Part shown: positions 52 to 29,500 of the stretch, piece after piece | Position numbering within the stretch: the first letter of the stretch is position 1 | How the letters are laid out: each line of letters begins with the position of its first letter | From: Staphylococcus virus IME1354_01 | Reading direction: 5' to 3' (one strand) | Sequence record: KY653126.1 | DNA length: 42,706 nt | The notes under the pieces: generated by a model | What the model was told of the DNA's origin: nothing | Seen by the model: the letters and a program-made list of their open reading frames with translations, nothing else | Database searches by the model: none | Translations under genes and position numbers: made by a program

Positions 52-71
52 GTGTCAAATATGTGTCAAGA
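52..71 (+). promoter_or_regulatory. Putative integrase arm-type binding site, tandem GTGTCAA repeats (aGTGTCAAATATGTGTCAAGaa)
   Basis: A near-identical 20-mer recurs at 42583-42604, next to the other att core. Inside it the 7-mer GTGTCAA is directly repeated with 10-bp spacing. Confidence 0.45.
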
Positions 72-1172
72 AAATAATTCTCTGACACGTTGACCTTGCT
101 CTTTTTTATGTTCTTCTAACAAATGAGAGTATGTGTCTAAAGTTATCGATATGCTTGCATGTCCTAAACGTTTACTAATATATTCAATAGGTAAACCCTT
201 AGAAAGTAAATAAGATGTGTGAGTGTGTCTTAGCGAGTAGGGTGTTACATTGTCATCATCTAATCCAACAACTTTTTTCGCGTGTTTAAAAGATTTATTT
301 ACTGCAGTATGACTCAAAGTAAATAACTTCCCATCAATCCTACGAGGTAAGTTAGACAACTTAGATTTGATTAACATTATATCTTTCTGGTTTACTTCAA
401 CATCTCTTTTTGAATTTTTAGTTTTTGTACCAGGTAAATGTATAATACCATTTTCTTTGTTTAGGTCATCGTAAGTCATGTTAATAGCATCGCTATATCT
501 TGCACCTGTAATTGCTAATAAGTATAAGAAGATATAGCTTTGGTCGTTTTTACTTTTAAAAAATTCAAGCATATCTAAATAATTTTTAATGCTTATATAT
601 TTAAAATGCTCCTCTTTAGCTTCCACAGTTCCTTTTACAGTTACATTGAAAGTAGGGTCTTTTTTCATATATCCATCATACACTGCCTCTCGCAAACAAG
701 GACCAATACACCCATTCACTTTCCTTACTGTTTCATCTGCGTGACCTTTGCCATAATTATTTAAGAATTTCTGATATTCTGAACGCTTAATATTTTTTAA
801 TAGTATTTGTTCGCCAAAATATTCTTTGAATAATTTAAGTGATCGTTCATACCAATAATATTGACGAGGAGACAAGTCTTTTTTGTTTTTTATTTCCAAC
901 CAATCATTATAGTAGTCCACAAACTTTTTGTTATCTTCTATTTTATTTCCATCTTCTAAATCTCTAATAAGTTGTTGTGCAGCCAATGTAGCTTCTGCTT
1001 TCGTTTTAAAGCCCGATTTACGTTTCTTACCTGACTTAAAACTTGGGTCTTTCACATCGTATTGCCATGTAGTAGATGTTTTATTTTTACGTTTTGTTAC
1101 TGTAAAAGTTGTCATATATTTCATTCCTCCTAAAAAAAGATAAAAATATATAGGGGCAGCATAGCTACCCAT
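66..1172 (-). CDS. int: Tyrosine recombinase / phage integrase
   Basis: The 368-aa product has a C-terminal catalytic region with R...HxxR...Y signatures (LRHTHTSYLL...GHASISITLDTYSHL). It sits at the prophage end next to the att core. Confidence 0.9.
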   Translation of the reverse strand: MGSYAAPIYFYLFLGGMKYMTTFTVTKRKNKTSTTWQYDVKDPSFKSGKKRKSGFKTKAEATLAAQQLIRDLEDGNKIEDNKKFVDYYNDWLEIKNKKDLSPRQYYWYERSLKLFKEYFGEQILLKNIKRSEYQKFLNNYGKGHADETVRKVNGCIGPCLREAVYDGYMKKDPTFNVTVKGTVEAKEEHFKYISIKNYLDMLEFFKSKNDQSYIFLYLLAITGARYSDAINMTYDDLNKENGIIHLPGTKTKNSKRDVEVNQKDIMLIKSKLSNLPRRIDGKLFTLSHTAVNKSFKHAKKVVGLDDDNVTPYSLRHTHTSYLLSKGLPIEYISKRLGHASISITLDTYSHLLEEHKKEQGQRVRELFS

Positions 1173-1177
1173 AAATA

Positions 1178-2056
1178 TTAAAATTCGCTATATATCATTA
1201 TTGGTTTAAAATAATGTGTAGGCTTATCTGTTAACGTTTGTAACAAAGGTTGAAGCATTTCTCTATCAACTTGTAATGATTCAAGAACATTTTGAGAATT
1301 AATAATAAGATGTTCTTGAACATTAGTAACAACTAACCCGATTATTTTTAAAGTGTTTTTAGTATAAAAGTACTTGAGCTCTCTAACGGGCACTTTTAAG
1401 TTTTCTTTGTATAAAGAACCTATTAGTGATTCACCATGGTAATCAAATAATAGTTTATAATCACCGGGTATTAGTTCATTAAATACTGACGAAAGTTGTT
1501 TCAATGGCGTTATTTGTTTTTCAATTTGTTTGAATTCGTCTTTGTCTGAAGTGTTTATTCCTAAAAAAGATGAAGTTTTATCTTTAGTATAAAGATCTAC
1601 AATTCTATTCAAAAAATCAAAATAGTCTTTATTCATTTCAGCAATAACTACTGAACTAGAAGAAAAAGTTTGCAATTTATCATTGTATTCTAAAGAATTT
1701 TCAAATATTTCATAAAGATAGTCATGTAATTCTATTTTATATAATTCAGATTGCGCTTCACTTTTTGAATCCATAAATTGTAAAGTTTCTCGTAATTCAT
1801 TTTTGTTAATTTTAAACTCGTATTTAGATGGCGTAGAGTATTCACCATTCACAACATGAATATTAGCTCCAATAGTTAAGTCTCCATCTTTTTCACCGCT
1901 AATTTTCTCAGTTTCTTTTGCATTTTGTGTTGTACGTGTTTCGCTCTCTGAACTTGTATTTTTGTTCATTTGACTGTAAGATAGATTTAAACCTTTTCCA
2001 TGTTGACTTAGATAAGAATATATAAATGCTTTATCAGTGTATAAATAATGTTTCAA
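1178..2056 (-). CDS. Hypothetical 292-aa protein, lysogeny-side accessory gene
   Basis: It is a long ORF on the same strand as int with a strong RBS (AAGGAGG) ahead of a TTG start. It has no TM segment and no recognisable catalytic motif. Confidence 0.6.
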   Translation of the reverse strand: MKHYLYTDKAFIYSYLSQHGKGLNLSYSQMNKNTSSESETRTTQNAKETEKISGEKDGDLTIGANIHVVNGEYSTPSKYEFKINKNELRETLQFMDSKSEAQSELYKIELHDYLYEIFENSLEYNDKLQTFSSSSVVIAEMNKDYFDFLNRIVDLYTKDKTSSFLGINTSDKDEFKQIEKQITPLKQLSSVFNELIPGDYKLLFDYHGESLIGSLYKENLKVPVRELKYFYTKNTLKIIGLVVTNVQEHLIINSQNVLESLQVDREMLQPLLQTLTDKPTHYFKPIMIYSEF

Positions 2057-2083
2057 TAAAATTCCTCCTTAGGTGGTGATTGT

Positions 2084-2287
2084 ATGTTTAAAACTTTAAA
2101 AGAAATGAAACGTAAAGATGATATAGAGTTCAAACAATTTTCAAACCAAGTAGATTATCAATTTAAAAAAGTTGAAGAAAAAAACGATAATAAAATGAAA
2201 GAACTTAATAATCAAAGAAAACAGAAAACCAAAGCTAAGCACCAATTGCCACTTTGGGCTGATGCAATAAAAAACGGTAAATTTTAA
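2084..2287 (+). CDS. Small basic K-rich 67-aa protein, possible excisionase-like DNA-binding protein
   Basis: It has an RBS (GGTGGTGA) and an ATG start, runs divergent to the 1178-2056 gene and is followed by a terminator hairpin. The xis assignment rests on position only. Confidence 0.4.
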   Translation: MFKTLKEMKRKDDIEFKQFSNQVDYQFKKVEEKNDNKMKELNNQRKQKTKAKHQLPLWADAIKNGKF

Positions 2288-2313
2288 CGTCTAACTTAGT
2301 TAGGCGTTTTTTG
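2288..2313 (+). terminator. Rho-independent terminator (cgtctaac ttag ttaggcg TTTTTT)
   Basis: The stem has one G-U pair and is followed by a T6 run, right after the 67-aa gene. Confidence 0.55.
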
Positions 2314-2351
2314 ATAAAAATATATAGGGCATAGTTAAATGCCCAAAAATA

Positions 2352-2942
2352 TTAATTAATAGGTTCTACTTCGTCTAATATTTCATTTTGTCTTCTTTCC
2401 ATAGCTTCCATTTCTTCATCACTGTAGTCCTTTTCACCATACATCTTATCTGAAAGGTCAAAATATTCTTCTTGTAATTCTGCTTCTTTAGCTTCCTGTT
2501 CAGCTTGTTCGGCAGCTTCTTGTTCCTTCACTTCTTTATAGGCAGCATCTGAATCTAATAATCCTGCATCACCATTAGGAATACCAGTATAACCATGTTC
2601 TTTCGCTACTTTAGCATTAGCTTCCATTTTTTCTTGGTCTGTCGGTTCATATGGTTTTGATTGCTCTTGTGATTGTATATTTTGTTGAGTGCTAGGTTGT
2701 TCTTCTGTATTTACATTTTCATTATCTGCTACTTGTTCAGAACTTTTATCATCTGTTTTAGATTTTTCTTCATCTAATTTCTTATTGTCTTTTTTACTAT
2801 TATCAGACTTTTTCTCATCTTTCTTTTTATCTTTGTTAGATGATTTTGTTTCTTTCTTATCTCCCGACTTACTTTCTTCACTATTTCCACATGCTGCTAA
2901 AATTAAGAAACTTGCTAATAATAAAACTAAAAACTTTTTCAT
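2352..2942 (-). CDS. Lipoprotein with a highly charged K/E/D-rich low-complexity mature region
   Basis: The N-terminus MKKFLVLLLASFLILAACGN carries a signal peptide and an LAAC lipobox. The ATG at 2942 is the likely start after RBS GGGGGAA. The ORF track extends to a TTG at 2957. Confidence 0.75.
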   Translation of the reverse strand: MKKFLVLLLASFLILAACGNSEESKSGDKKETKSSNKDKKKDEKKSDNSKKDNKKLDEEKSKTDDKSSEQVADNENVNTEEQPSTQQNIQSQEQSKPYEPTDQEKMEANAKVAKEHGYTGIPNGDAGLLDSDAAYKEVKEQEAAEQAEQEAKEAELQEEYFDLSDKMYGEKDYSDEEMEAMERRQNEILDEVEPIN

Positions 2943-2958
2943 TCTACATTCCCCCAAA

Positions 2959-3528
2959 TTATTTATTCGCTATAGTTTTAAGTAATTCTATTATTTCATC
3001 ATTTTGCTTAATTAAAGTATCGTTTTGAGCAATTTGAATGAAGTTTTGATTTTGTTGTGTTTGATAATAGTTATACATCGCTTGTTTTTCCATATTTAAA
3101 GTAAAAGTACCTAAAGCGTGGTAAAATTTATCAAAGTTTGCCATTATGTTTTGTTTGTTGAATGCATCCAATGTTGTTTGACTTGGATTATATATACCTT
3201 GTGTAGTAAAAAATTTTATTAATCTGTCGTAATTAGCTTCTTTTATTTCTTGCTCTTTTATCTTAGCCATTTTAGCCTTATGATTTTCGTTTTTTATTTT
3301 AGAATCAACTTTTTCTTTTGTATGTTTAAAAGATGCTTCTTTTATTAAATCTATATAATTCTCACTTGATAGATTTATAGGATCATCTTTGATATATTGC
3401 AAAACTACTATATCTTTTTGATTTCTATTCAATGATTTAAATATTTTTAAATCAGAATCGCTTAGTGTCTTCTTATATTTTCCTTCGTTCCAAGAAATTT
3501 TGTTTTGTTCTTTAAAACCTAAACCCAT
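2959..3528 (-). CDS. Hypothetical 189-aa protein
   Basis: The ORF is tightly packed between the lipoprotein and ImmA-like genes on the lysogenic strand. Confidence 0.55.
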   Translation of the reverse strand: MGLGFKEQNKISWNEGKYKKTLSDSDLKIFKSLNRNQKDIVVLQYIKDDPINLSSENYIDLIKEASFKHTKEKVDSKIKNENHKAKMAKIKEQEIKEANYDRLIKFFTTQGIYNPSQTTLDAFNKQNIMANFDKFYHALGTFTLNMEKQAMYNYYQTQQNQNFIQIAQNDTLIKQNDEIIELLKTIANK

Positions 3529-4457: not shown

Positions 4458-4486
4458 TTGACAAACAGGAAACATGCGTTTAGTAT
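4458..4486 (+). promoter_or_regulatory. Sigma-A-type promoter for cro: TTGACA-17 bp-TAGTAT
   Basis: The -35 box is at 4458-4463 and the -10 box at 4481-4486, just upstream of the cro RBS. Confidence 0.6.
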
Positions 4487-5173: not shown

Positions 5174-5620
5174 ATGGAACAAATAACAGTGACTAAAGAA
5201 GAATTACTTGAGTTAGTAGAAAAAGCAGTAAGTAAAAGATTAAATGGTGTGAAAGAAAAAGGACCGAAGACATTATTTAAAGAAGTATCGCTTTCGAAAG
5301 AAGATATAAAAAATGTCAACGATAGCTTTATAATTCCAAACCAAGACCATCCTTTCTCACACGAGGTCAACACAGACGCAATCTTAGAAGTATCAGAAAT
5401 ATGTAGTCATAAAAGTGTAAGGTCTGTTTTTCATTATAAGTTTGCTGTTCACGATAATTTAAGATTGATTTCACAAAGAATTGTAGGAGCAAGTAGAAAT
5501 ACAGATATCGATAAAAAAGATTATGAGTTTGTTGAAGAATGTTATTCAGAATTAAAAGAGAAATTTTTAGAGTTGTATGAAAAAGCTTTAGAAAGAAAAT
5601 TAGAAAGAAAAGACCGCTAG
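5174..5620 (+). CDS. Hypothetical 148-aa early protein
   Basis: The ORF is on the early strand and is followed by an imperfect hairpin at 5611-5650. Confidence 0.55.
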   Translation: MEQITVTKEELLELVEKAVSKRLNGVKEKGPKTLFKEVSLSKEDIKNVNDSFIIPNQDHPFSHEVNTDAILEVSEICSHKSVRSVFHYKFAVHDNLRLISQRIVGASRNTDIDKKDYEFVEECYSELKEKFLELYEKALERKLERKDR

Positions 5621-6984: not shown

Positions 6985-7665
6985 ATGCCAATAATTAAAA
7001 ACTACATCCAGCAAGATGATGGCACAATAACTGCTGTCATCGAGGATGTAACGTTAGAAAACAAAGACTTCTTACTGTTAGATAACGGACTAGAAGTAGA
7101 GTGCGACGTAATCGTGAGTGATCCTTACAAGATAACCGATAAACAACGTCGAAAAGTGTTCGCAATGATAAGAGATATATTCAATCACTATGGACAACCA
7201 ATGGACTATTTAAGGTATATGTTCCAAAAACAACTGGAGTTCTTACACGGTTATGAACCTATTTCATTAAGTAACTGCAGTAGACGACAAGCGAGTGAAT
7301 TAATCGAGTTGATACTTGATTTTATATTCGTAAATAATATACCCATTCACAAAGTCACTAGCGAGCTTATGAGCAACGATAAGTATTTTATATATAAATC
7401 TACCATAAACAGAATATGTGTTGTCTGTGGGGCTAAGAATGCCGATTTAGCACATTATCAAGCAGTAGGTAGAGGACGAAACAGAAACAAGATAGATCAT
7501 TATGGAAACAAAGTGTTAGCGCTGTGCAGAAACCATCATACAGAACAGCATCAAATAGGAATGGATAGCTTTAACAAGAAATATCATCTTACAGACAGTT
7601 GGCTTGACGTGGACGAGAAGCTGAATAAGATGTTGAAAGGAGAGCAATCAAATGGGAATCATTAG
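6985..7665 (+). CDS. HNH/Zn-finger nuclease-like protein (DUF968-type)
   Basis: The motif CVVCGAKNADLAHYQAVGRG...LALCRNHHTEQHQIG has the Cys/His spacing of an HNH-like fold. Confidence 0.5.
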   Translation: MPIIKNYIQQDDGTITAVIEDVTLENKDFLLLDNGLEVECDVIVSDPYKITDKQRRKVFAMIRDIFNHYGQPMDYLRYMFQKQLEFLHGYEPISLSNCSRRQASELIELILDFIFVNNIPIHKVTSELMSNDKYFIYKSTINRICVVCGAKNADLAHYQAVGRGRNRNKIDHYGNKVLALCRNHHTEQHQIGMDSFNKKYHLTDSWLDVDEKLNKMLKGEQSNGNH

Positions 7666-8359: not shown

Positions 8360-8725
8360 TTGCCAATGACTAAAAAAGAAGCAATAACCATACTGAAACT
8401 ATTAGAAGATGTATATGATATGGGGTTCAATAAAAATGAAAGTAAAGCTAAGACTTGGATGAATTTCCTAGTAGAAGATGGAGACTATGAGCCTTCGTTA
8501 CAAACAGCTAAAAGATATATTAAAGATGGTAATACCTTCCCTCCTAAATTACCACACATCTTAAAAAAATATCCTAAAACAGTTAAAGAGGAACCTATTG
8601 ACGAAAAGACTGCAAAACATCGTTGGAAAATGCAAAATGACCCAGAATATGTAGCACGTCGTAAAAAAATACTAGATGATTTTAAAAAGAAGTTAAATGA
8701 GTTTGAGGTGAACAACAATGAATGA
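8360..8725 (+). CDS. Hypothetical 121-aa protein in the replication module
   Basis: The ORF lies between the organizer and the helicase, with a TTG start at 8360 or an ATG at 8366. Confidence 0.5.
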   Translation: MPMTKKEAITILKLLEDVYDMGFNKNESKAKTWMNFLVEDGDYEPSLQTAKRYIKDGNTFPPKLPHILKKYPKTVKEEPIDEKTAKHRWKMQNDPEYVARRKKILDDFKKKLNEFEVNNNE

Positions 8726-9953
8726 ACGCCATGAGATAGAAAGCACCATTGTTGCTAGTCTTTTACAAAAACCAGATTTAATCGAAAAACTACGTGTTAA
8801 ACCTAAAATGTTTACGCATGATGGTATGAAGTCCTTTATGGAGTATGTGTTTGATGTAGGTAAAGTGGACCACAACGAAATATATTTAAAGACTACTAAA
8901 GACAAATCATTTTTAGATATGAATACCATTTCGAATTTGTATAATTCAATATTTATCGGCTACGGATTCTTTGAAAGATACCAACAAGATTTACTCAATC
9001 TATATCAAATAGATCAGACGCAAAATGTATTACAAGAATTCAATTCGGAACCAAACATAAACAATTTCGATGAGATGCTTAACAAACTACAAAAAGTCAG
9101 CTTGATTAGTGCAAATGAAGAAAGTGGAACGAAGAAAATTGTAGATCACTTTGTTGAAGAATTATACAGCGAAGAACCTAAGAAACAAATTAATACAGGT
9201 TACAAATTGATGGATTACAAAATAGGAGGTTTAGAGCCTACACAGTTGATTGTGATTGCTGCAAGGCCTTCAGTCGGAAAGACAGGATTTGCGCTTAATA
9301 TGATGCTTAATATTGCCTCACAAGGATATAAAACATCGTTCTTTAGCTTAGAAACTACAGGTGTATCTGTATTAAAAAGAATGTTATCAGCAGAAACTGG
9401 AATAGAACTAACACGTATTAAAGAAATTAAAGATTTAGAGCCAGATGAACTAACACGTTTAACAAGTGCTGCAGATAAAATACTCAAACTTGATATAGAT
9501 ATACACGATAAAAGCAATATCACTACACACGATGTACGTAAACAAGCGATGAAAAACAAAGATACCCAACAAGTTATATTCATCGACTACCTACAACTTA
9601 TGGAAACAGACAACAAGTTAGATCGTCGTAATGGTATTGAAAAAATATCAAGAGACTTAAAGATTATCGCTAACGAAACAGGCGCAATTATCGTCTTACT
9701 TTCACAGTTAAGTCGTGGAGTTGAAAGTAGAAACGACAAACGTCCTATGTTATCTGATATGAAAGAAGCAGGCGGAATAGAAGCAGACGCTAGTTTAGCA
9801 ATGTTGTTATATCGAGATGACTATTATAACCGTGATGACGTTGATAACTCAGGAAAATCAATTGTTGAATGTAATATCGCAAAGAATAAAGACGGGGAAA
9901 CGGGCATTATCGAATTTGAATACTACAAGAAAACGCAAAGGTTTTTCACATGA
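8718..9953 (+). CDS. DnaB-like replicative DNA helicase
   Basis: The C-terminal RecA-like domain has Walker A (ARPSVGKTGFALNMM) and DnaB-type motifs (IDYLQLM, LSQLSRGVESR). Confidence 0.9.
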   Translation: MNERHEIESTIVASLLQKPDLIEKLRVKPKMFTHDGMKSFMEYVFDVGKVDHNEIYLKTTKDKSFLDMNTISNLYNSIFIGYGFFERYQQDLLNLYQIDQTQNVLQEFNSEPNINNFDEMLNKLQKVSLISANEESGTKKIVDHFVEELYSEEPKKQINTGYKLMDYKIGGLEPTQLIVIAARPSVGKTGFALNMMLNIASQGYKTSFFSLETTGVSVLKRMLSAETGIELTRIKEIKDLEPDELTRLTSAADKILKLDIDIHDKSNITTHDVRKQAMKNKDTQQVIFIDYLQLMETDNKLDRRNGIEKISRDLKIIANETGAIIVLLSQLSRGVESRNDKRPMLSDMKEAGGIEADASLAMLLYRDDYYNRDDVDNSGKSIVECNIAKNKDGETGIIEFEYYKKTQRFFT

Positions 9954-10156
9954 CTATAAAACAATTCCAACAATTACTCGGACACCTATACAGAGACACA
10001 TACAAAGACGACACGCTCATTCAAGCTAATTTACTTGAGTTAGGTTGGGCAACTGAAAGATTGCGTGTGAATGGTCGCATAACGCCGTTTGATATGTATG
10101 AAGAAAAGAAGGACATTATTTTTGAAGAAATGGAGTGGTCGGATAGATGGAAATAA
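9950..10156 (+). CDS. Hypothetical 68-aa protein
   Basis: The ORF is coupled to the helicase stop through an ATGA overlap. Confidence 0.5.
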   Translation: MTIKQFQQLLGHLYRDTYKDDTLIQANLLELGWATERLRVNGRITPFDMYEEKKDIIFEEMEWSDRWK

Positions 10157-10371
10157 TTGAAAAGTATTTTCTTTATAGACCAGATGGAACAGAAGAAATA
10201 GAAGTAGAGAAACTTGATAAAGATACGAATATAGTTAGAACGCTCACAGGCGCTCATTTTAGCGAAGAAAGTAAAAAGATGACTGATAATGAGGTAAAAC
10301 GTTTTAAAGGCGTGTACGGGCTTCTATATGAGAATGAGCTAGGGTTACAAACAACAATATTTGATATATAG
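10147..10371 (+). CDS. Hypothetical 74-aa protein
   Basis: Its 3' end (…FDI stop) lies inside the 20-bp junction repeat. Confidence 0.5.
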   Translation: MEIIEKYFLYRPDGTEEIEVEKLDKDTNIVRTLTGAHFSEESKKMTDNEVKRFKGVYGLLYENELGLQTTIFDI

Positions 10372-10377
10372 GAGTGA
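10358..10377 (+). repeat. 20-bp junction direct repeat tatttgatatataggagtga (copy 1)
   Basis: An exact copy is at 11151-11170. It spans the FDI-stop of the upstream gene and the RBS of the downstream gene. Confidence 0.8.
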
Positions 10378-10381
10378 ACCA

Positions 10382-11164
10382 ATGGAACTGAATAAAATTT
10401 ACAACGAAGATTGTTTGATAGGTATGGAAAAAATTAAGGACAAGTCGGTAGATATGATTTTATGCGATTTACCATATGGAATGACAGATTGTAAGTGGGA
10501 CTCGATACTACCTTTAGATAAGCTATGGAAGCAGTACGAAAGAGTGATAAAGGATAATGGCGCTATAGTTCTAACAGCAGCACAACCGTTCACAACTCAC
10601 CTCATTGCTTCAAACATGAAACTTTTCAAATACACTTGGTATTGGATTAAAAATAGACCCAGTGGTTGGCAACATGCAAAGAATAAACCAATGACCAAAG
10701 TTGAAGAAGTATGTGTTTTTAGTAAAGCACCAATAGGGCATTTTTCACGACTAGGGGATAGAAGAATGGAGTATTACCCACAAGGTATTAAACCATCTGG
10801 CAAGAAAACCATAAGTGCTGCAAAACGCGGGAACATTATGGGGGCGAGACCTAATCAGACAGGAAAAGAATATGAGTCATTCACAGGTTTTCCGCATAAC
10901 ATACTAGAAATACAAAACGTCATCGGCAAACAAACAGTACATCCTACTCAAAAACCTGTTGAGCTATTCGAATACCTAATCAAAACATACACAAATGAGG
11001 GCGATACAGTATTAGATAATTGCATAGGGAGTGGAACAACCGCAATAGCTGCAATTAACACTAATAGAAATTATATAGGCTTTGAGTTAGACAAAGAATA
11101 TTTCGAATTAGCGAAAGACCGAATAAAAAAACACAATAAGCAGATGGAATTATTTGATATATAG
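10382..11164 (+). CDS. Orphan DNA methyltransferase, N6-adenine/N4-cytosine beta-class (N6_N4_Mtase-type)
   Basis: Motif IV DLPYG precedes HPTQKP and motif I (VLDNCIGSGTTAIAA). I take the ATG at 10382 after GGAGTGA as the start. The track begins at a TTG at 10361. Confidence 0.85.
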   Translation: MELNKIYNEDCLIGMEKIKDKSVDMILCDLPYGMTDCKWDSILPLDKLWKQYERVIKDNGAIVLTAAQPFTTHLIASNMKLFKYTWYWIKNRPSGWQHAKNKPMTKVEEVCVFSKAPIGHFSRLGDRRMEYYPQGIKPSGKKTISAAKRGNIMGARPNQTGKEYESFTGFPHNILEIQNVIGKQTVHPTQKPVELFEYLIKTYTNEGDTVLDNCIGSGTTAIAAINTNRNYIGFELDKEYFELAKDRIKKHNKQMELFDI

Positions 11165-11170
11165 GAGTGA
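11151..11170 (+). repeat. 20-bp junction direct repeat tatttgatatataggagtga (copy 2)
   Basis: It is an exact match to 10358-10377 and bounds the 3' end of the methyltransferase cassette. Confidence 0.8.
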
Positions 11171-11174
11171 CGGA

Positions 11175-11576
11175 ATGAGCAAATACAATGCAAAAAAAAT
11201 TGAGTACAAAGGAATTGTATTCGATAGCACGGTAGAGTGTGAATATTACCAATATTTAGAAAGTAGATTGCATGTAGATGGTTATGACCATATTCAAGTA
11301 CAACCTAGATTTGAGTTAATACCAAAAGTGGGCAAGCAAAGAAAAACGGAATATGTGGGAGATTTCGCACTGTATTTTGAAACTAAACTTATCGAAGTTA
11401 TAGATGTTAAAGGTATGCCTACAGAAACAGCTAAATTGAAAGCAAAGTTATTCAGATATAAATACCCAGATGTAAAGCTAACGTGGATATGTAAAGCTCC
11501 TAAATACACAGGTAAGCAATGGATAACTTACGAAGATTTAATTAAAGCTAGACGAGAACGCAAGAAAGCGAAGTGA
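11175..11576 (+). CDS. Conserved phage protein (DUF1064-like)
   Basis: The segment YKGIVFDSTVECEYYQYLE...VGDFALY matches a common staphylococcal-phage early protein. The ATG at 11175 follows GGAGTGA. Confidence 0.5.
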   Translation: MSKYNAKKIEYKGIVFDSTVECEYYQYLESRLHVDGYDHIQVQPRFELIPKVGKQRKTEYVGDFALYFETKLIEVIDVKGMPTETAKLKAKLFRYKYPDVKLTWICKAPKYTGKQWITYEDLIKARRERKKAK

Positions 11577-11581
11577 TCTAA

Positions 11582-11770
11582 ATGAATGAAGAAACAGCAA
11601 CAATTCGATATAAAGTCTACGTTGAGAAGCGAGTGTATGTTAATCACGATGACGATGATAATACTGCCGCTGATAAGATACACAATCAGATGTGGACGAA
11701 TAAAGAAGATTACATGGACGCAAAACCATTAGAGTTTGACGACGTAAAAATTATAGATAGGGGTTATTGA
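11582..11770 (+). CDS. Hypothetical 62-aa protein
   Basis: This is a tightly packed ORF on the early strand. Confidence 0.45.
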   Translation: MNEETATIRYKVYVEKRVYVNHDDDDNTAADKIHNQMWTNKEDYMDAKPLEFDDVKIIDRGY

Positions 11771-11771
11771 G

Positions 11772-12125
11772 ATGGTTAAAACAATTAGAGTGCACGACGC
11801 AATATATGAAATCAAAGGCGAGAACTACGAGCTAGCAGAGAAGTTGGATATATCAGATGGTTTATTAAGAGGTCGACTGTTGAAAGGCTGGTCGTTAGCA
11901 GAAGCATGCCAGGTACCTAAAGGTATTGACCCTAAAGATTTAGTTTATATCAATTATGCCAAACAGTATGAAGCAGATAACACACAAGCGAAGATTAATT
12001 ACAGAGAAGAAAAGCATAAGGAAGAACGTCCTTGGTTATACGATGGAACACCACAAAACCATGACAGAGGTAAGTGGTGCCAGTATTTAATGAATACAAG
12101 TATTTTTCCTAAGGCGGTGCATTAG
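11772..12125 (+). CDS. Hypothetical 117-aa protein
   Basis: This is a tightly packed ORF on the early strand. Confidence 0.5.
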   Translation: MVKTIRVHDAIYEIKGENYELAEKLDISDGLLRGRLLKGWSLAEACQVPKGIDPKDLVYINYAKQYEADNTQAKINYREEKHKEERPWLYDGTPQNHDRGKWCQYLMNTSIFPKAVH

Positions 12126-13100
12126 ATGAAAATCAGTGATTTAAAAATAGGTAACTACGTTGTTGTGAATGACTTAGGTGCAGGTAAGTATAGCAGTGGT
12201 ATGCGTGTGATAGGTAGAGTGGTTGAGATTGACGATAAAGGAAACTATGCGATTATCGAATCGCTACCTAAACACAGATATGAAATCACAGACTTCAACG
12301 ACTTTGAGTTGTGGACGAAAGAGATGGAAGATAAGACTGAGAGTATGAGTAAAGTAAAAATAAAAGATTTGAATTTAGGTGACACAATCCGGATACCACA
12401 CGGAATAATGTATTTAGAAGGTAAAGTGGTTTCCATAAGTGATGTGTTTGCGACAGTGCACTTTCCTTCAGTAGGACATAAAGCTATAGGTGATGAGTCG
12501 GATTTTAAAAGAATTAGAAAAGCAAGAAAATCATTGGACCCTAATAAATGGTTAGAGAAAGCTATTGAGGAAAATAAGGAAAATTCAAAATCAGTTTTAG
12601 AAGCAGGTTTAGGGGTTAGTAAACCGACTACTGACCATAAACAATCCAACGACGTACAACAACGTAAGCGTAAGGAAGAAAACACGGCGTTATTTAAAAT
12701 TAAGGATTTAAAAGTCGGTTACAAAGTCAAAATGCTAGATGATGATATGACAGGTGAAATTTCTGAAATAGCCGATAATGGTAAGTATGCTGAAATAAAA
12801 ATAGATAATGGCGTGTATAGAGGTATCAACGATAATTGTGATTTCACAATAACAGAGTGGAATTCAGTGCCAGAGTATGCAGAGGACACAGTTAACAGTC
12901 CTTCACATTATAACTACGGTGATATAGAAGTGATAAATTTCATAGAGCAGGTAACTCAACATTACAACGCTAACGTAGCTTATCACATTGGGAATGCTAT
13001 TAAGTATCTTGCACGCAGTCCTCATAAGAACGGTAAAGAGGACGTAGCTAAAGCTAAATGGTATATCGAACGTGCGTTTGAGAATTGGGATGTGAAGTAG
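12126..13100 (+). CDS. 324-aa protein with three tandem N-terminal KIKDL-type repeats and a conserved C-terminal phage domain (DUF3310-like)
   Basis: The three repeat units begin MKISDLKIGNYVVV, KVKIKDLNLGDTIRI and LFKIKDLKVGYKVKM. The C-terminal region reads SPSHYNYGDIEVINFIEQ...NAIKYLARSPHKNGKEDVAKAKWYIERA. Confidence 0.55.
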   Translation: MKISDLKIGNYVVVNDLGAGKYSSGMRVIGRVVEIDDKGNYAIIESLPKHRYEITDFNDFELWTKEMEDKTESMSKVKIKDLNLGDTIRIPHGIMYLEGKVVSISDVFATVHFPSVGHKAIGDESDFKRIRKARKSLDPNKWLEKAIEENKENSKSVLEAGLGVSKPTTDHKQSNDVQQRKRKEENTALFKIKDLKVGYKVKMLDDDMTGEISEIADNGKYAEIKIDNGVYRGINDNCDFTITEWNSVPEYAEDTVNSPSHYNYGDIEVINFIEQVTQHYNANVAYHIGNAIKYLARSPHKNGKEDVAKAKWYIERAFENWDVK

Positions 13101-13529
13101 ATGGACGTACATTATAGTAGCAAATCTAATGAGTGGGCTACACCTCAGTATTTATTTGATGAATTAGATAGAGAATTTAGTTTTACATTGGATCCATGCG
13201 CTACAGATGGAAACGCTAAATGTGATAAATACTACACAATTAAAGATGATGGTTTAAAACAAGATTGGTCAAATGATGTAGTGTTTATGAACCCTCCGTA
13301 TGGACGAGGTATTAAACATTGGATTAAGAAAGCATATGAAGAACATATGAAAGGTGCAACGGTTGTTTGTTTAATTCCTTCAAGAACAGACACAACTTAT
13401 TGGCATGACTATATTTTCGGAAAAGCAAGTGACATTCGTTTTCTAAGAGGGCGTTTGAAGTTTGGTGATAGTAAAAACAGTGCGCCGTTTCCTAGTGCAA
13501 TTGTTGTATATGAAAGTGAGATACGTTAA
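13101..13529 (+). CDS. Orphan DNA N6-adenine methyltransferase, phage Dam family
   Basis: WATPQYLFDELDREFSFTLDPCA, the NPPYG motif and FLRGRLKFGD...APFPSAIVVYES match the phage Dam family along the whole length. Confidence 0.8.
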   Translation: MDVHYSSKSNEWATPQYLFDELDREFSFTLDPCATDGNAKCDKYYTIKDDGLKQDWSNDVVFMNPPYGRGIKHWIKKAYEEHMKGATVVCLIPSRTDTTYWHDYIFGKASDIRFLRGRLKFGDSKNSAPFPSAIVVYESEIR

Positions 13530-13735
13530 TGAAGCTATCTGACGCTATCAAAGTTAAATACAAACTCGATACTAAAGGCAGAAATACTGTCGAAATGGCA
13601 AAGCTACTAAGAGATTGTGGAGTTAAAGGATTCTTATACTCGATTAATCCACGTAGCATTGTCATGGCAGTGTTGCCAGAGGATAAAGCACATAACAGGA
13701 AAGTATTAAATGAATTGAAAGGGCTGGTGGAGTAG
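13529..13735 (+). CDS. Hypothetical 68-aa protein
   Basis: The ORF is coupled to the upstream gene through an ATGA overlap. Confidence 0.45.
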   Translation: MKLSDAIKVKYKLDTKGRNTVEMAKLLRDCGVKGFLYSINPRSIVMAVLPEDKAHNRKVLNELKGLVE

Positions 13736-14440: not shown

Positions 14441-14583
14441 TGCCCAAATCAAAATACTACTCAACTAAACAAATCAGAGAAATCATAAATAGTTATCAAA
14501 TATATGAACCACATATTCATAAAGAGGTGTTAGAGAGATTGAAACAAGAGTTTGGATACAAGGAGGACAACAACAATGATTAA
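14440..14583 (+). CDS. Small 47-aa ORF (not in track)
   Basis: Its ATG overlaps the upstream TAA, and it ends just inside the next gene (MPKSKYYSTKQIREIINSYQIYEPHIHKEVLERLKQEFGYKEDNNND). Confidence 0.3.
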   Translation: MPKSKYYSTKQIREIINSYQIYEPHIHKEVLERLKQEFGYKEDNNND

Positions 14584-14926
14584 AGAACAATTATATACAT
14601 TCAAAGCAAACTGCTACAACGTTGTAGATGGGGACACAATAGACGTGATATTAGATTTCGGTTTCGATATTTCTGCAGATAGAAGATTACGTTTATTAGA
14701 TGTTGATACGCCTGAACGAGGACAAGAGAATTACACAGAGGCTACTGAGTTTGTGAAAGATAAAGTGTTTAATCACGATGTGCTGGTGCAGACACACAAA
14801 GATGACAATTTTGGTCGTTACTTAGCAAATGTTTATTACCTAGATGGCACAGAATATAGACTGCTTAATGATGAGATTAAAGAGAATGGACTATTAAAAC
14901 CAAATTCTAAATGGAATGAGGAGTGA
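14576..14926 (+). CDS. Staphylococcal-nuclease (SNase/thermonuclease)-like fold protein, short
   Basis: It contains VVDGDTIDV...RLRLLDVDTPER (compare the SNase DGDT...RLLLVDTPE). The ATG at 14576 follows AGGAGG. The track begins at a TTG at 14552. Confidence 0.55.
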   Translation: MIKEQLYTFKANCYNVVDGDTIDVILDFGFDISADRRLRLLDVDTPERGQENYTEATEFVKDKVFNHDVLVQTHKDDNFGRYLANVYYLDGTEYRLLNDEIKENGLLKPNSKWNEE

Positions 14927-17255: not shown

Positions 17256-17407
17256 ACTAAGGTAAGGTATATAATATGGATATACGCAAGTTGGATATAA
17301 CTTTAGAGGTGTTAGTCCAATGGTATGTAATACAAATACTATATTATGATTAATTTGCAGGCACATCACATTGAGTGGTGTGTCTTTCTTATATGGAGGT
17401 AAGCAAA

Positions 17408-18142
17408 GTGAAACTTGTTATTGTGTATGGTGCGCCTATGAGTGGTAAGACAACATACGTTAATGAACAATTAACTAATGAAGATATTGTGTATGACTAT
17501 GATGCTTTAGCAAAGACTATCACTAATAGTGAATACCAACAATACAATGACAATGCACACAATCTATTACTTACTCTAAGAGATAGCATGATTGATTATG
17601 CCAAGTGGAATGATAAAGGAACTATGTACATCATTACGACATTCTTATCTAAAGTAATACTTAATAGACTTAAGACATTATCTATAGAAGCGAAGTACAT
17701 CAAGATGGATGTAGATATAAATACTTGTCTTAAACGTTTGTACGAAACAGACAGACACGATGCACATGAGGTTGAAGAAGTCATACATGATTGGTATGCA
17801 AGACATGATAATAAACCAGCAAGTGATCGTGTTGTTGATAAGGAGACAATGCGTTTCTACAAATCTAAAGCATGGCGTGATACAAGGCTACAAGTATTAA
17901 AAAGAGATAACTATGAATGCCAACATTGCAAGGCACAAGGTAAAGTGACAACTATTGATAAGAGCAAACATAAATCATTAGATGTTGACCATATAAAAGA
18001 GTTGGATACACATCCAAATTTAGCATATGACATGGACAATTTGGTTACATTGTGTGTGTCTTGTCATAATCGCAAACACAATCGGAACTACAATCGATGG
18101 AATCGCAAGCCTAATAAATGGGATGGAGATGAAAAATGGTAA
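17408..18142 (+). CDS. HNH endonuclease fused to an N-terminal P-loop NTPase/kinase-like domain (packaging-associated HNH)
   Basis: The N-terminus has Walker A VIVYGAPMSGKTTYV, and the C-terminus has the HNH motif YECQHCK...LDVDHIKEL...NLVTLCVSCHNRKHN. It sits immediately upstream of the cos region and terS. The GTG at 17408 after GGAGGT is the likely start. Confidence 0.75.
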   Translation: MKLVIVYGAPMSGKTTYVNEQLTNEDIVYDYDALAKTITNSEYQQYNDNAHNLLLTLRDSMIDYAKWNDKGTMYIITTFLSKVILNRLKTLSIEAKYIKMDVDINTCLKRLYETDRHDAHEVEEVIHDWYARHDNKPASDRVVDKETMRFYKSKAWRDTRLQVLKRDNYECQHCKAQGKVTTIDKSKHKSLDVDHIKELDTHPNLAYDMDNLVTLCVSCHNRKHNRNYNRWNRKPNKWDGDEKW

Positions 18143-26501: not shown

Positions 26502-29500
26502 ATGGCAGATGAAATTAAGGGTTTTACGATTGATTTAGGTATTGACACCTCCGATATTGATAGAGGGATGGCCAACTTACAACGTAAATTAAAAACTGCA
26601 GATGCGCAAATGAAAGCTAACCTTTCTACATTTGATAAAGCAGAAAAGTCAGTGGACAAATTCGAAACTGAATTAGAAGGATTGAATAAAAAGCTAACAC
26701 AACAAGGGCGTGCAAGCGAACAATCTCAAAAGAAATTAGATCAACTAAGAAACGCCCAAGACAATACAAACAAGAAGATGAAAGAAGCAGCAGTTCAAGC
26801 TCAAAATGCTAAAAGTCGTTATGAATCATTGGCTGATAGTTATGACAAGTTAAATAATGAACTTAAAGAACATCAAACCAATGTTAAGAATGCGCAAAAT
26901 GCACAAAAACAAATGCAGAATACTGTCACGGCACTAAGCGCGAAAATGAAAAATGCTAAATCTTCTGTAGATGGTTTACAGGAAGAATTTGACCAATTAA
27001 ATGCATCAGGCAAAGCGTCTAAACAAGAATTAACTTCGTTAGGCAATCAGTTAGCTAAAGCTAGAGCTCAATACAATAGTTTATCTAATGCTGTAGATAG
27101 TGCTAAGCAAGATTTAAATGAATCTAAAGTAGCAACAGCAAATGCAAAAAATGAATTGCAAAACTTTAGTGATGCCAACAAAGAAGCGATGACTAGCGCT
27201 AAAACTGCAATGCAGTCCGCAAAGCAAGAAGCTAACAATGCAGAGAAATCTTATGCATCATTGAATAGGGAAGTAGCACAACTTCCAAGCAAACTTGATA
27301 AAGCTGAAAAAGAAGTTTACGAAAATGCTTTAGCTTATAACGTATTGCAAAATCGTATTGACGAAGCAACTGATGAAATGCGTGAATTCCACAGAGAACA
27401 AACAAAATTCTTCGGTATGGGTCCTGCAATTGCTGCAATGGGTCAACGTTGGGAAGAAGTAAACGCTAAAATCAATAAAATTGGTAATAGTTTCAGGAAC
27501 GTTGGCTATGTAGTTCGAGGTATTGGCATGGGTGCTTTAATTTCTAACATTTCTGCTGTAATACCTGTGGCTGGTAGTGCTGTAAGTGCTATTGCTGGAA
27601 TAGGTGGTGCTGCTACTGCAGCTGCTGGTGGTGCGATTGGACTTGGTGGTGCTTATGGTGTTGCGTTAGGCGGCATCATGGCATTTAGTGGCCAAGCTAC
27701 AACTGCTTTGCAAATGTTAGAAGATGGCCAAATAAAAGTTACTAGTCAAGTTCGTAGATACCAAACAGCATTAAGCGGTTTGCAAAATCAATGGAAAGGT
27801 CTTGTGCAGTCTAATCAAGCGGCTATATTTAATACAATGGCCAATGGTATTAATATCGCAAGAACTGCGTTAACTAGATTAACTCCCTTCATTACGACAA
27901 CTACAAATCAAATAGCCCGAGCATCAAAAGAAATGCGTAACTGGGTTACATCTTCTAAAAATGCTAACAATGCATTCAAACTTATTAATAATATTGGTCC
28001 ACCGATATTCCAAAACTTACTTAACGCTGCAATGCGTGTAGGCGATGGTATCACACATATGTTCACTCAATTTGGCCCTTTATTTACTTGGACAGGTAAA
28101 GGTATAGAAAGTTTAGCTAATAAATTTAACGCATGGGCTAACAGTGCAAGTACAGATAAAGGGATAGCCCAATTTATTCAATATACTAAAACGAATCTTC
28201 CTATTGTAGGACAGATATTCGGGAATGTATTTAGTGGTATTGTTAGTTTATTCCAAGCATTTAGTGGTCATTCACATGATGTGCTAGTAGGGATGCAAGG
28301 TGTAACCAAAACATTTAAAGATTGGGCTGCTAATTTACAAGGAACTGAAGGTTTTAAAAACTTCATAGCTTATCTTAACGCAAATGGTCCTAAAGTTTGG
28401 CAATTACTCAAAAACATTGGAAACATTTTTGTTGGTCTTGTTAGAGGTATGGCACCAGTTGGATCCGTAGTGCTTAGTATAACAACAGCTATAACTGGAT
28501 TTATAGCCAAAGGTGCAACAGCTAACAATACAATGGGTCTAATGACAGGTGTTTTAACAGCTGTTGGTGGTGCATTAGCAGCAATTCTTCCCATGTGGGG
28601 CGTATATAAAACTGTAATGGGTGGTGCTTCGTTAGTAACTCGTGCATATAACACCATAGTTAATATAACAAAAACATCAATGGCTATTTGGACAGGTGTA
28701 ACACGTGCTTTAGCCTTAGCTCAAATTTTAAATGCTAGAAACACTTCTTTAGCAACTATTATGACTGGTAAATATTCAATCGCTACAAAAATTGCTGCAG
28801 TTGCTACACGAGGACTAGGTTTAGCTCTTAGATTTATGACTGGGCCAATTGGTTGGGTTATAACTGCTATCGGTGCATTGGTTGCAGGCATTATGTATCT
28901 TTGGAAAAACAACGAAACGTTCCGTAATTTTGTCATAACTGCTTGGAATCAAATTAAAGCCACAGCAATATCAGTTTTTGGCTTTTTAAAACCATATTTA
29001 GTTGCAATATGGAATGGTATAAAAACATCTGCAATTGTTGCATGGACGATTTTGAAAACTGCAGCATTTGCGACATGGAATGCAATTAAATTTGCAATTC
29101 AAAATCCAATTTTGGCATTAAGGAACGTTTTATCTGCTATTTGGGCTGGAATTAAATTCACAGCTATAGCAGTGTGGACAGGAATTAAGACTGCTGTATT
29201 GACAATTATTCGTACATGGTTAGCAGTAGCTAAAGCATATTTTAACGTTTGGAAAGTAGCACTTACTGCGATATGGAATGGTATAAAAACTGTTGCAATA
29301 GCTGTATGGAACGGTATTAAGAACTCAATACTATCAATCATTCGAACTTTAGTTGCAGTAGCTAGAGCTATTTTAAATACAATAAAAACTGTTGTTTCAA
29401 CGGTGTTTAATGGTGCTAAAACGATTGCTATAGCAGCGTGGACAATCTTAAAAAATAGAGTGGTTGCAATAACACGTGCAATTTGGACGTTAGTTAAAGC

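Follow-up and report, generated by a model that had tools for sequence, protein, structure and literature searches.

Solitary phage methyltransferases are a textbook anti-restriction device. Here we examine two of them, MT1 (nucleotides 10382-11164) and MT2 (13101-13529), in the replication module of Staphylococcus virus IME1354_01 (KY653126.1); the window analyzed is the whole stretch of 42,706 nucleotides. The closest described relative of MT2 is PamA, which, like MT2, is a solitary PF05869 enzyme whose gene is one of the replication genes of a temperate staphylococcal siphovirus (the prophage mosaic phi11, mPhi11, PP554657; JCI 2025); PamA has 141 amino acids and MT2 has 142. PamA, with its active site at N64-P65-P66-Y67, methylates GATC as judged by DpnI sensitivity, and the mutants P65A, P65T and P66A are inactive (PMC12435837). 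When the gene is under its native control in the prophage, fnbA expression, biofilm formation and abscess size go up, effects that require methylase activity (PMC12435837). The closest described pair is found in the Lactococcus 936-type phage Phi93, which carries the same two families as solitary genes, M.Phi93I and M.Phi93DAM (Murphy et al. 2014, PMC4190342). Each of the two Phi93 enzymes shields DNA from a restriction enzyme (DpnII, HphI): M.Phi93DAM produces G6mATC according to single-molecule real-time (SMRT) sequencing and the cloned gene protects DNA against DpnII, while M.Phi145I, a 99% twin of M.Phi93I, makes GGWG6mA and protects against HphI (PMC4190342). Two further systems are more distant. 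M.MboIIA (PDB 1g60) is a beta-class N6-adenine enzyme that recognizes GAAGA and has the motif order of MT1; however, the two are only 22% identical, their recognition regions differ, and M.MboIIA is part of a type IIS restriction-modification (R-M) system with a cognate endonuclease, whereas MT1 is without one. The Geobacillus phage vB_GthS_PT9.1 (OP341630), a temperate-type siphovirus, has two methyltransferase genes approximately 5 kb apart, although its host phylogeny and backbone differ. One of these genes is of the PF05869 type and shares 65% identity with MT2; the other is of the PF01555 type and shares 52% with MT1.

How does the IME1354_01 locus compare with these systems? The phage has been described as the first temperate phage of S. 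cohnii (Tian et al. 2022, as cited in PMC11001980) and is classified in the genus Zhangqianvirus. The window has the standard siphovirus layout, running from an integrase gene at one end to the holin/lysin region. The host of PamA, in contrast, is S. aureus. Phi93 is a virulent phage whose two genes, with an HNH gene between them, are placed in the packaging module and flanked by the terminase subunit genes; IME1354_01 is temperate and has its two in the replication module. The presence of two methyltransferase genes is not new, as both are already annotated in the published genome. By exact-sequence look-up, the MT1 protein is identical to ARM68353.1/YP_010648345.1, labelled “adenine-specific methyltransferase,” and the MT2 protein to ARM68358.1/YP_010648350.1, labelled “DNA modification methyltransferase.” Our additions are modest: a predicted GATC target for MT2, a probable recognition-region swap in MT1, two cassette slots, a 20-nucleotide duplication, and the depletion of GATC in the genome. 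We read the locus as two independently acquired solitary methyltransferase cassettes in an early operon that chiefly protect progeny DNA from restriction, and give this reading a probability of roughly 0.6. The two genes and their motifs, including those that bind S-adenosylmethionine (AdoMet), are as follows.

10382-11164, plus strand: MT1, 260 amino acids (PF01555, PADLOC MTase_II, match to 1g60)
10466-10480, plus strand: MT1 catalytic motif IV, DLPYG (amino acids 29-33)
10727-10933, plus strand: MT1 central variable region, the presumed target-recognition domain (amino acids 116-184)
10940-11041, plus strand: MT1 HPTQKP and AdoMet-binding motif I, C-terminal to motif IV (aligned to M.MboIIA and M1.HpyAVI)
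13101-13529, plus strand: MT2, 142 amino acids (PF05869, PADLOC oMTase, identity to PamA)
13290-13304, plus strand: MT2 catalytic NPPYG (N64-P65-P66-Y67-G68, amino acids 64-68)

Profile matches and a predicted fold confirm that MT1 belongs to the beta-class PF01555 methyltransferases. The protein matches PF01555 (N6_N4_Mtase) with an E-value of 5e-30 and 105.5 bits (curated cut-off: 26.7 bits) over profile positions 1-220 of 221. Its best PADLOC model is the type II methyltransferase MTase_II PDLC03251 (4e-82), and its PHROGs match is phrog_67, “DNA methyltransferase,” the same label as that of phrog_111, matched by MT2. The motif order is the circularly permuted one of the beta class, with motif IV N-terminal, motif I C-terminal and a variable region between them; HPTQKP occupies amino acids 187-192 (nucleotides 10940-10957) and the FxGxG-like VLDNCIGSGTT amino acids 210-220 (nucleotides 11009-11041). 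The second residue of motif IV is Leu rather than Pro, as it is in M.Phi93I/M.Phi145I; M.Phi93I is 46% identical to MT1, with identical DLPYG and an identical motif I. Among solved structures the best relative by sequence is M.MboIIA (1g60, full length, E-value 1.9e-19), in an alignment that pairs DLPY with DPPY and the two FxGxG motifs with each other. An AlphaFold2 model built from 44 homologues (predicted local distance difference test, pLDDT, 84.8; predicted TM-score 0.83) again has 1g60 as its best Foldseek match (E-value 2.5e-18, TM 0.60-0.68). Every one of its top 38 PDB matches is a beta-class DNA methyltransferase; the structural matches include MboIIA, CcrM, M.BceJIV, M1.HpyAVI and RsrI, with N4-cytosine enzymes lower.

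MT2 is unrelated to MT1 in sequence (BLASTP E-value 0.036). It matches PF05869 (Dam) with an E-value of 7e-30 and 104.4 bits (curated cut-off: 28.1 bits), and its best PADLOC model is the orphan methyltransferase oMTase PDLC03726 (5.5e-58). Besides NPPYG, it contains WATPQYLF (amino acids 12-19), DPCA (amino acids 31-34) and FLRGRLKFGD (amino acids 114-123). Its cluster has 247 members, widespread in S. aureus and S. haemolyticus genomes, and RefSeq names the near-identical members “phage N-6-adenine-methyltransferase.” A sequence search found no solved structural relative of MT2, and a single-sequence AlphaFold2 model has a pLDDT of 43, too low for a fold search. The alignment with PamA has 112 identities in 137 positions (82%), with NPPY at the same residues N64-Y67; the “dam” genes of phages 80, 52A, 88, 92 and P954 are as similar to MT2 as PamA is, and M.Phi93DAM is 61% identical. 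As both PamA and M.Phi93DAM are experimentally GATC-specific, these identities make the target of MT2 predictable as GATC. MT2 is thus most likely an orthologue of PamA and M.Phi93DAM that methylates N6 of the adenine in GATC.

An earlier note on this DNA had claimed the two open reading frames (ORFs) as methyltransferases, had listed their motifs, and had expected matches to PF01555 and PF05869. Both ORFs are indeed present on the plus strand, both profiles are matched, and each motif lies at an exact position in the proteins. The note had also left both target sequences unassigned, which still applies to MT1 but no longer to MT2. Its description of the two enzymes as mechanistically distinct goes too far, since both are AdoMet-dependent enzymes acting on exocyclic amino groups with a (D/N)xPY motif, and both most likely modify N6 of adenine. 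The difference between them is most likely one of family and motif order, not of chemistry.

Does either gene have a restriction partner? We scanned the early region, the lysogeny module and the packaging genes with Pfam, PADLOC, NCBIfam and PHROGs, and no R-M endonuclease was found next to MT1 or MT2 or elsewhere in the window, as the earlier note had supposed for the adjacent genes. The nucleases that the window does contain, none of which is an R-M endonuclease, are DUF1064, TerL (the terminase large subunit) and the following three.

6985-7665: HNHc_6 protein
14552-14926: SNase-like protein (PF00565) in the early operon, phrog_452 “endonuclease,” with a weak match to PADLOC SNc
17375-18142: HNH protein in front of the terminase genes

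DUF1064 (11175-11576), a small protein labelled Holliday-junction resolvase in PHROGs, was considered as a hidden partner of MT1 and rejected. It is a conserved backbone gene, since it has no PADLOC match, adjoins DUF3269 without a methyltransferase in phage BM31, in the IMG/VR prophage L094 and in many S. aureus phage records, and has its place in prophage L089 taken by a RusA resolvase a few genes upstream of DUF3310. No endonuclease neighbors P0002 or P0005, the nearest relatives of MT1 (86% and 75% identity), nor does one neighbor the identical MT2 in three other prophages. MT1 and MT2 are confirmed as solitary (orphan) phage methyltransferases and are not members of type II R-M systems.

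We now turn to the setting of the two genes. According to Pfam and PHROGs, the gene order is DnaB helicase, phrog_3161, DUF3269, MT1, DUF1064, a small ORF, PVL_ORF50, DUF3310, MT2, phrog_3683 and YopX. The neighbors of MT1 and MT2 are all members of phage backbone families. Each methyltransferase gene occupies what we call a slot between two backbone genes.

10147-10371, plus strand: DUF3269 gene, left boundary of slot 1 (PF11673, E-value 1.6e-30)
10358-10377, plus strand: left copy of the 20-nucleotide repeat (last codons of DUF3269, ..FDI, its stop and the MT1 ribosome-binding site)
11151-11170, plus strand: right copy of the repeat (last codons of MT1, ..FDI, its stop and the DUF1064 ribosome-binding site)
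11175-11576, plus strand: DUF1064 gene, right boundary of slot 1 (PF06356, E-value 1.6e-41; phrog_190)
11772-12125: PVL_ORF50, between the small ORF and DUF3310
12126-13100, plus strand: DUF3310 gene, left boundary of slot 2 (PF11753, E-value 1.1e-21)
13529-13735, plus strand: phrog_3683 gene, right boundary of slot 2 (PHROGs)

In phage BM31 of S. arlettae, DUF1064 comes straight after DUF3269, and the phrog_3683 homologue straight after DUF3310; in the window, the left and right flanks of MT1 and of MT2 align with these junctions. Judged by these alignments, MT1 and MT2 are clean cassette insertions relative to the empty sites. MT1 is moreover flanked by a perfect 20-nucleotide direct repeat, TATTTGATATATAGGAGTGA, which has exactly two matches in the window (0.01 expected; two matches reached in 0 of 100 shuffles). 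L094 has one copy of this 20-mer at its empty DUF3269/DUF1064 junction, and there the 20-mer and the bases that follow are identical to the right junction of the window.

The content of both slots varies from phage to phage. Slot 1 holds a Dam-type gene of the PamA type in phage 80 and in mosaic phi11, whereas in IME1354_01 it holds MT1 and the Dam-type gene, MT2, is found in slot 2. In the related IMG/VR contig L095 slot 1 contains a 344 amino acid long beta-class allele with a different central region. As to slot 2, an identical MT2 directly follows DUF3310 in L088, L089 and L090, an MT2 homologue directly follows the DUF3310 gene in IME1365_01, and BM31 has nothing there. The same slot in L095 (7818-8396) encodes a 192 amino acid protein which, from a reading of its sequence, resembles an HNH/NUMOD homing endonuclease. 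O1-69, overall the closest relative, has a beta-class gene between TerL and portal. The two genes rarely meet: an MT2-like gene lies within the flanks of one of 80 MT1-like genomic loci, and no MT1-like gene was seen in the stretch examined of seven other MT2-bearing staphylococcal phage regions. MT1 and MT2 therefore do not form a module but occupy two independently variable slots, and the word “stacked” in the earlier note, with its suggestion of a designed pair, does not fit them.

The variation within MT1 relatives is itself modular. Compared with M.Phi93I, MT1 is 63% identical over amino acids 1-115, 15% over 116-184 and 57% over 185-260; the corresponding values for P0002 are 90%, 90% and 77%. 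The central regions of O1-69 and L095 are different again, with 52 and 148 residues. The MT1 subfamily proper is strongly conserved with its central region included (44 sequences at 60-86% identity, 65% mean column identity). We read this pattern as a probable swap of the target-recognition region among MT1 relatives. The GGWGA motif of M.Phi93I was considered for MT1 and rejected, because the central recognition region of M.Phi93I is only 15% identical. The family is large, at least 7,942 proteins at an E-value of 1e-40 or below, mostly metagenomic. When species-representative genomes were scanned with MT1, none of the 80 loci kept was more than 60% identical and none belonged to Staphylococcus; the scan gave no clue to the host or to an R-M origin of MT1. 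In a contig look-up the exact MT1 protein occurred on only two short metagenome contigs. The 86% relative of MT1 on L091 (Logan SRR31646574 contig, 27.6 kb) shares its contig with two more methyltransferase genes, one of them again PF01555 and the other a PF00145 C5-cytosine type, which makes three that are stacked; L091 is large and phage-like and also encodes ribonucleotide reductase, thymidylate synthase and TnpB/IS605 (Cas12f-like).

By what route might such cassettes be exchanged? The 20-nucleotide repeat was considered as the recombination breakpoint, and this fails in the metagenome contig L087. Identity between L087 and the window spans MT1 and approximately 110 nucleotides of DUF1064 and then falls to about 74%; the exchange was therefore within the flanking backbone gene and not at the repeat. 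One could still imagine the DUF3269-DUF1064 junction as a dedicated methyltransferase exchange point at which the conserved 20-mer is duplicated on insertion and specificities are re-assorted in the manner of hsdS in type I systems. MT1 would then have an undescribed specificity, and with MT2 added, a lysogen of a coagulase-negative species could have an epigenome of two motifs and show regulatory effects like those of PamA. We regard this larger picture as speculative and doubt that it holds.

The expression of MT1 and MT2 can be approached through the signals on the plus strand.

4458-4486, plus strand: TTGACA-17-TAGTAT, the best promoter-like site on this strand, cI-cro intergenic (consensus match only)
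17359-17385, plus strand: first terminator-like hairpin downstream of MT1 and MT2

Helix-turn-helix repressor-like genes flank the site at 4458-4486, which is presumed to be the early lytic promoter of the operon that holds both genes. No plus-strand terminator is predicted between about 4500 and 17359. The promoter scan gave no convincing dedicated promoter for MT1 or MT2, with fewer promoter-like sites than in shuffles, and for this reason expression in the lysogen cannot be argued from sequence. The stop codon of DUF3310 (TAG) abuts the ATG of MT2 (13098-13103), and the MT2 stop overlaps the ATG of phrog_3683 (TAATG, 13526-13531). Given the lack of a convincing private promoter, the lack of a plus-strand terminator and the abutting or overlapping frames, the simplest view is that MT1 and MT2 are both made early in the lytic cycle and methylate the phage DNA while it is being replicated.

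Among the 4-bp palindromes, none is as depleted in this genome as GATC: 121 sites would be expected and 43 are present (ratio 0.36). Sau3AI cutting is unaffected by adenine methylation of GATC, so MT2 would guard the 43 remaining sites only from enzymes of the DpnII/MboI type. The depletion fits a long history of restriction at GATC in staphylococci: no type II system is commoner in S. aureus than Sau3A, whose modification is on cytosine, and phage K no longer has a single GATC site (PMC6532042). The sites that remain are evenly spread, about one per kb, with a maximum of two per 300 nucleotides (mean for random placement: 2.9). There are no clusters, and neither the cI-cro intergenic region nor the stretch right before the terminase genes contains a site. 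G6mATC also cuts SaCas9 cleavage 6-10 fold at NNGGAT[C] protospacer adjacent motifs (PMC12805903). At 19 of the GATC sites a neighboring G or C could provide the NNGGAT[C] context. Evasion of SaCas9 would be at most a minor extra benefit.

Protection of progeny DNA by two independent cassettes would work as follows. MT1 and MT2 would be transcribed with the early lytic operon, translated from tightly packed and coupled reading frames, and act on replicating phage DNA, so that virions would leave the cell with two extra methylation patterns, whatever the systems of the producing host. In the next host this DNA would be shielded from enzymes that are blocked by N6-methyladenine (m6A) at either motif. 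At GATC the protection would be against DpnII/MboI-type enzymes, and the threat of Sau3AI would be met by the depletion of the site. The parts of this reading that are shown directly are the family assignment, the intact catalytic motifs, the fold of MT1, the lack of a restriction partner, the cassette structure and the GATC depletion. The earlier note had offered either an anti-restriction or an epigenetic role; both have precedent in homologues, M.Phi93DAM and M.Phi145I for the first and PamA for the second, and as a whole its proposal is partly supported.

Several points weigh against our reading of the locus. The enzymatic activity, targets, expression timing and biological benefit of MT1 and MT2 are all inferred. 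MT2 scores 94.1 bits against TIGR01712 (phage_N6A_met), narrowly under the equivalog cut-off of 97.05, in a match that spans profile positions 11-123 of 165. The recognition region of MT1 is unlike that of every characterized relative, and neither its motif nor its base (N6-adenine or N4-cytosine) is fixed. The anti-restriction value of MT2 in staphylococci depends on the presence of DpnII/MboI-type enzymes; the strong depletion of GATC suggests that methylation alone did not relieve the selection on this site; and G6mATC would expose the DNA to DpnI-like methyl-dependent enzymes. Finally, the only in vivo phenotype shown for PamA, the close staphylococcal homologue, is an epigenetic one concerning virulence, not an anti-restriction one.

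A first alternative is lysogenic conversion: the main selected function, for MT2 at any rate, would be to methylate the host chromosome in lysogens and so to reprogram host transcription as PamA does, with protection of phage DNA being secondary. The 82% identity to PamA and the shared active-site residues speak for it, as do the methylase-dependent effect of PamA under native prophage control (PMC12435837) and the wide distribution of the MT2 cluster in S. aureus and S. haemolyticus. A lysogen in which the genes are expressed, by leakage or on induction, may indeed have its chromosome methylated and its gene expression altered, as for PamA. However, MT2 is buried deep in the early lytic operon. 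It has neither a convincing private promoter nor a plus-strand terminator to isolate it, and would therefore be largely repressed in a stable lysogen. The phage switch region contains no GATC and the sites are not clustered; the PamA phenotype concerns virulence genes of S. aureus, not S. cohnii; and MT1 is left unexplained. We consider lysogenic conversion a possible but rather unlikely main role.

A second alternative concerns the chemistry. N4-cytosine enzymes typically have SPP(Y/F) as motif IV. If MT1 were an N4-cytosine methyltransferase, the phage would carry two chemically different modifications. PF01555 takes in N6-adenine and N4-cytosine enzymes alike, a homologue in Geobacillus virus E3 (53.5% identical to MT1) is annotated “putative DNA cytosine methylase,” and N4-cytosine enzymes (rotifer N4CMT, M.PvuII) are among the structural matches of the MT1 model. 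Yet motif IV of MT1 begins with Asp (DLPY), and DLPYG recurs unchanged in the closest characterized relative, the m6A-forming M.Phi93I/M.Phi145I. The best matches of MT1 by sequence and by structure are N6-adenine enzymes, the E-values being 8.6e-11 and 1.4e-5 for N4-cytosine enzymes versus 1.9e-19 for MboIIA, and both GenBank and JGI label the MT1 family adenine-specific. Cytosine chemistry is accordingly improbable. Because motif IV carries Asp and the nearest relatives are m6A enzymes, MT1 is most likely an N6-adenine enzyme, acting at a motif set by its own central region.

The two remaining alternatives we consider very unlikely. The methyltransferases might regulate the life cycle of the phage itself, be it the choice between lysis and lysogeny, packaging or the timing of replication, in the way that GATC methylation regulates packaging in P1 (as cited in PMC4190342), where Dam methylation acts at pac. 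Such a role would suit their place among the replication genes, which precede those for packaging. But GATC sites are evenly spread, and are absent both between cI and cro and immediately ahead of the terminase genes. Moreover, close relatives such as BM31 and L094 have the same backbone and neither of the two genes, which are thus dispensable for the life cycle. That one or both are functionless passengers, selfish or decaying cargo of mosaic recombination, is suggested by slots that are empty (BM31) or hold a selfish element (the slot 2 homing endonuclease of L095) and by the scarcity of the exact MT1 protein in the contig look-up, but is contradicted by two intact, full-length frames with all catalytic and AdoMet motifs kept, a strongly conserved MT1 subfamily, an MT2 protein 100% conserved across four phage backbones, and close homologues that are active.

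Other features of the window deserve mention, beginning with these two genes.

66-1172, minus strand: integrase, the start of the window layout
8718-9953: DnaB helicase gene, intact in the window

In BM31 (L002 614-2601) the DnaB helicase gene is annotated as two pieces with an HNH homing endonuclease gene between them. The DUF3310 protein (12126-13100), whose family is labelled “nucleotide kinase” in PHROGs, is enlarged, with 324 amino acids against 160-262 in related phages. Its N-terminus consists of three repeats of approximately 55 amino acids, each opening with (K/V)I(S/K)DL..G, and the pairwise local alignments of these repeats have z values of 2.7-6.5 relative to shuffles. The HNH protein in front of the terminase genes (17375-18142) looks like a fusion. 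It has 255 amino acids, compared with 104-116 in L088 and L089; its N-terminal 150 residues resemble a P-loop/kinase-like domain (weak AAA_33; phrog_4581 “terminase small subunit,” 3.5e-68; phrog_505 polynucleotide kinase). In the lysogeny module three genes (1178-3528, minus strand) are located between the integrase and the M78 peptidase/repressor pair. They encode proteins of 292 amino acids, 201 amino acids (lipoprotein-like) and 189 amino acids, which have no Pfam or PADLOC assignment and match only PHROG families of unknown function; these genes are candidates for morons or superinfection exclusion. The anti-repressor Ant (5174-5620, phrog_847, E-value 6e-42) lies just downstream of the cro-like genes, and a 95 amino acid ORF on the opposite strand overlaps its start. 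Within the 1885 amino acid tape-measure gene (26502-32159) there is an antisense ORF of 630 amino acids (29099-30991, minus strand), striking in length but most likely spurious.

What would the two-cassette reading mean for these phages? In itself it changes little, as it largely restates the public annotation, and this pair of families has already been described and tested in one genome. MT2 can, however, be annotated as a PamA orthologue with predicted G6mATC activity, which would extend the PamA story to phages of coagulase-negative staphylococci. The DNA of IME1354_01 is predicted to be sensitive to DpnI and resistant to DpnII/MboI; this behavior, together with lowered SaCas9 cutting, would matter for cloning, transduction and host-range work in phage therapy. 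The MT1 subfamily is large and mostly metagenomic, and a single motif assignment would cover thousands of genes.

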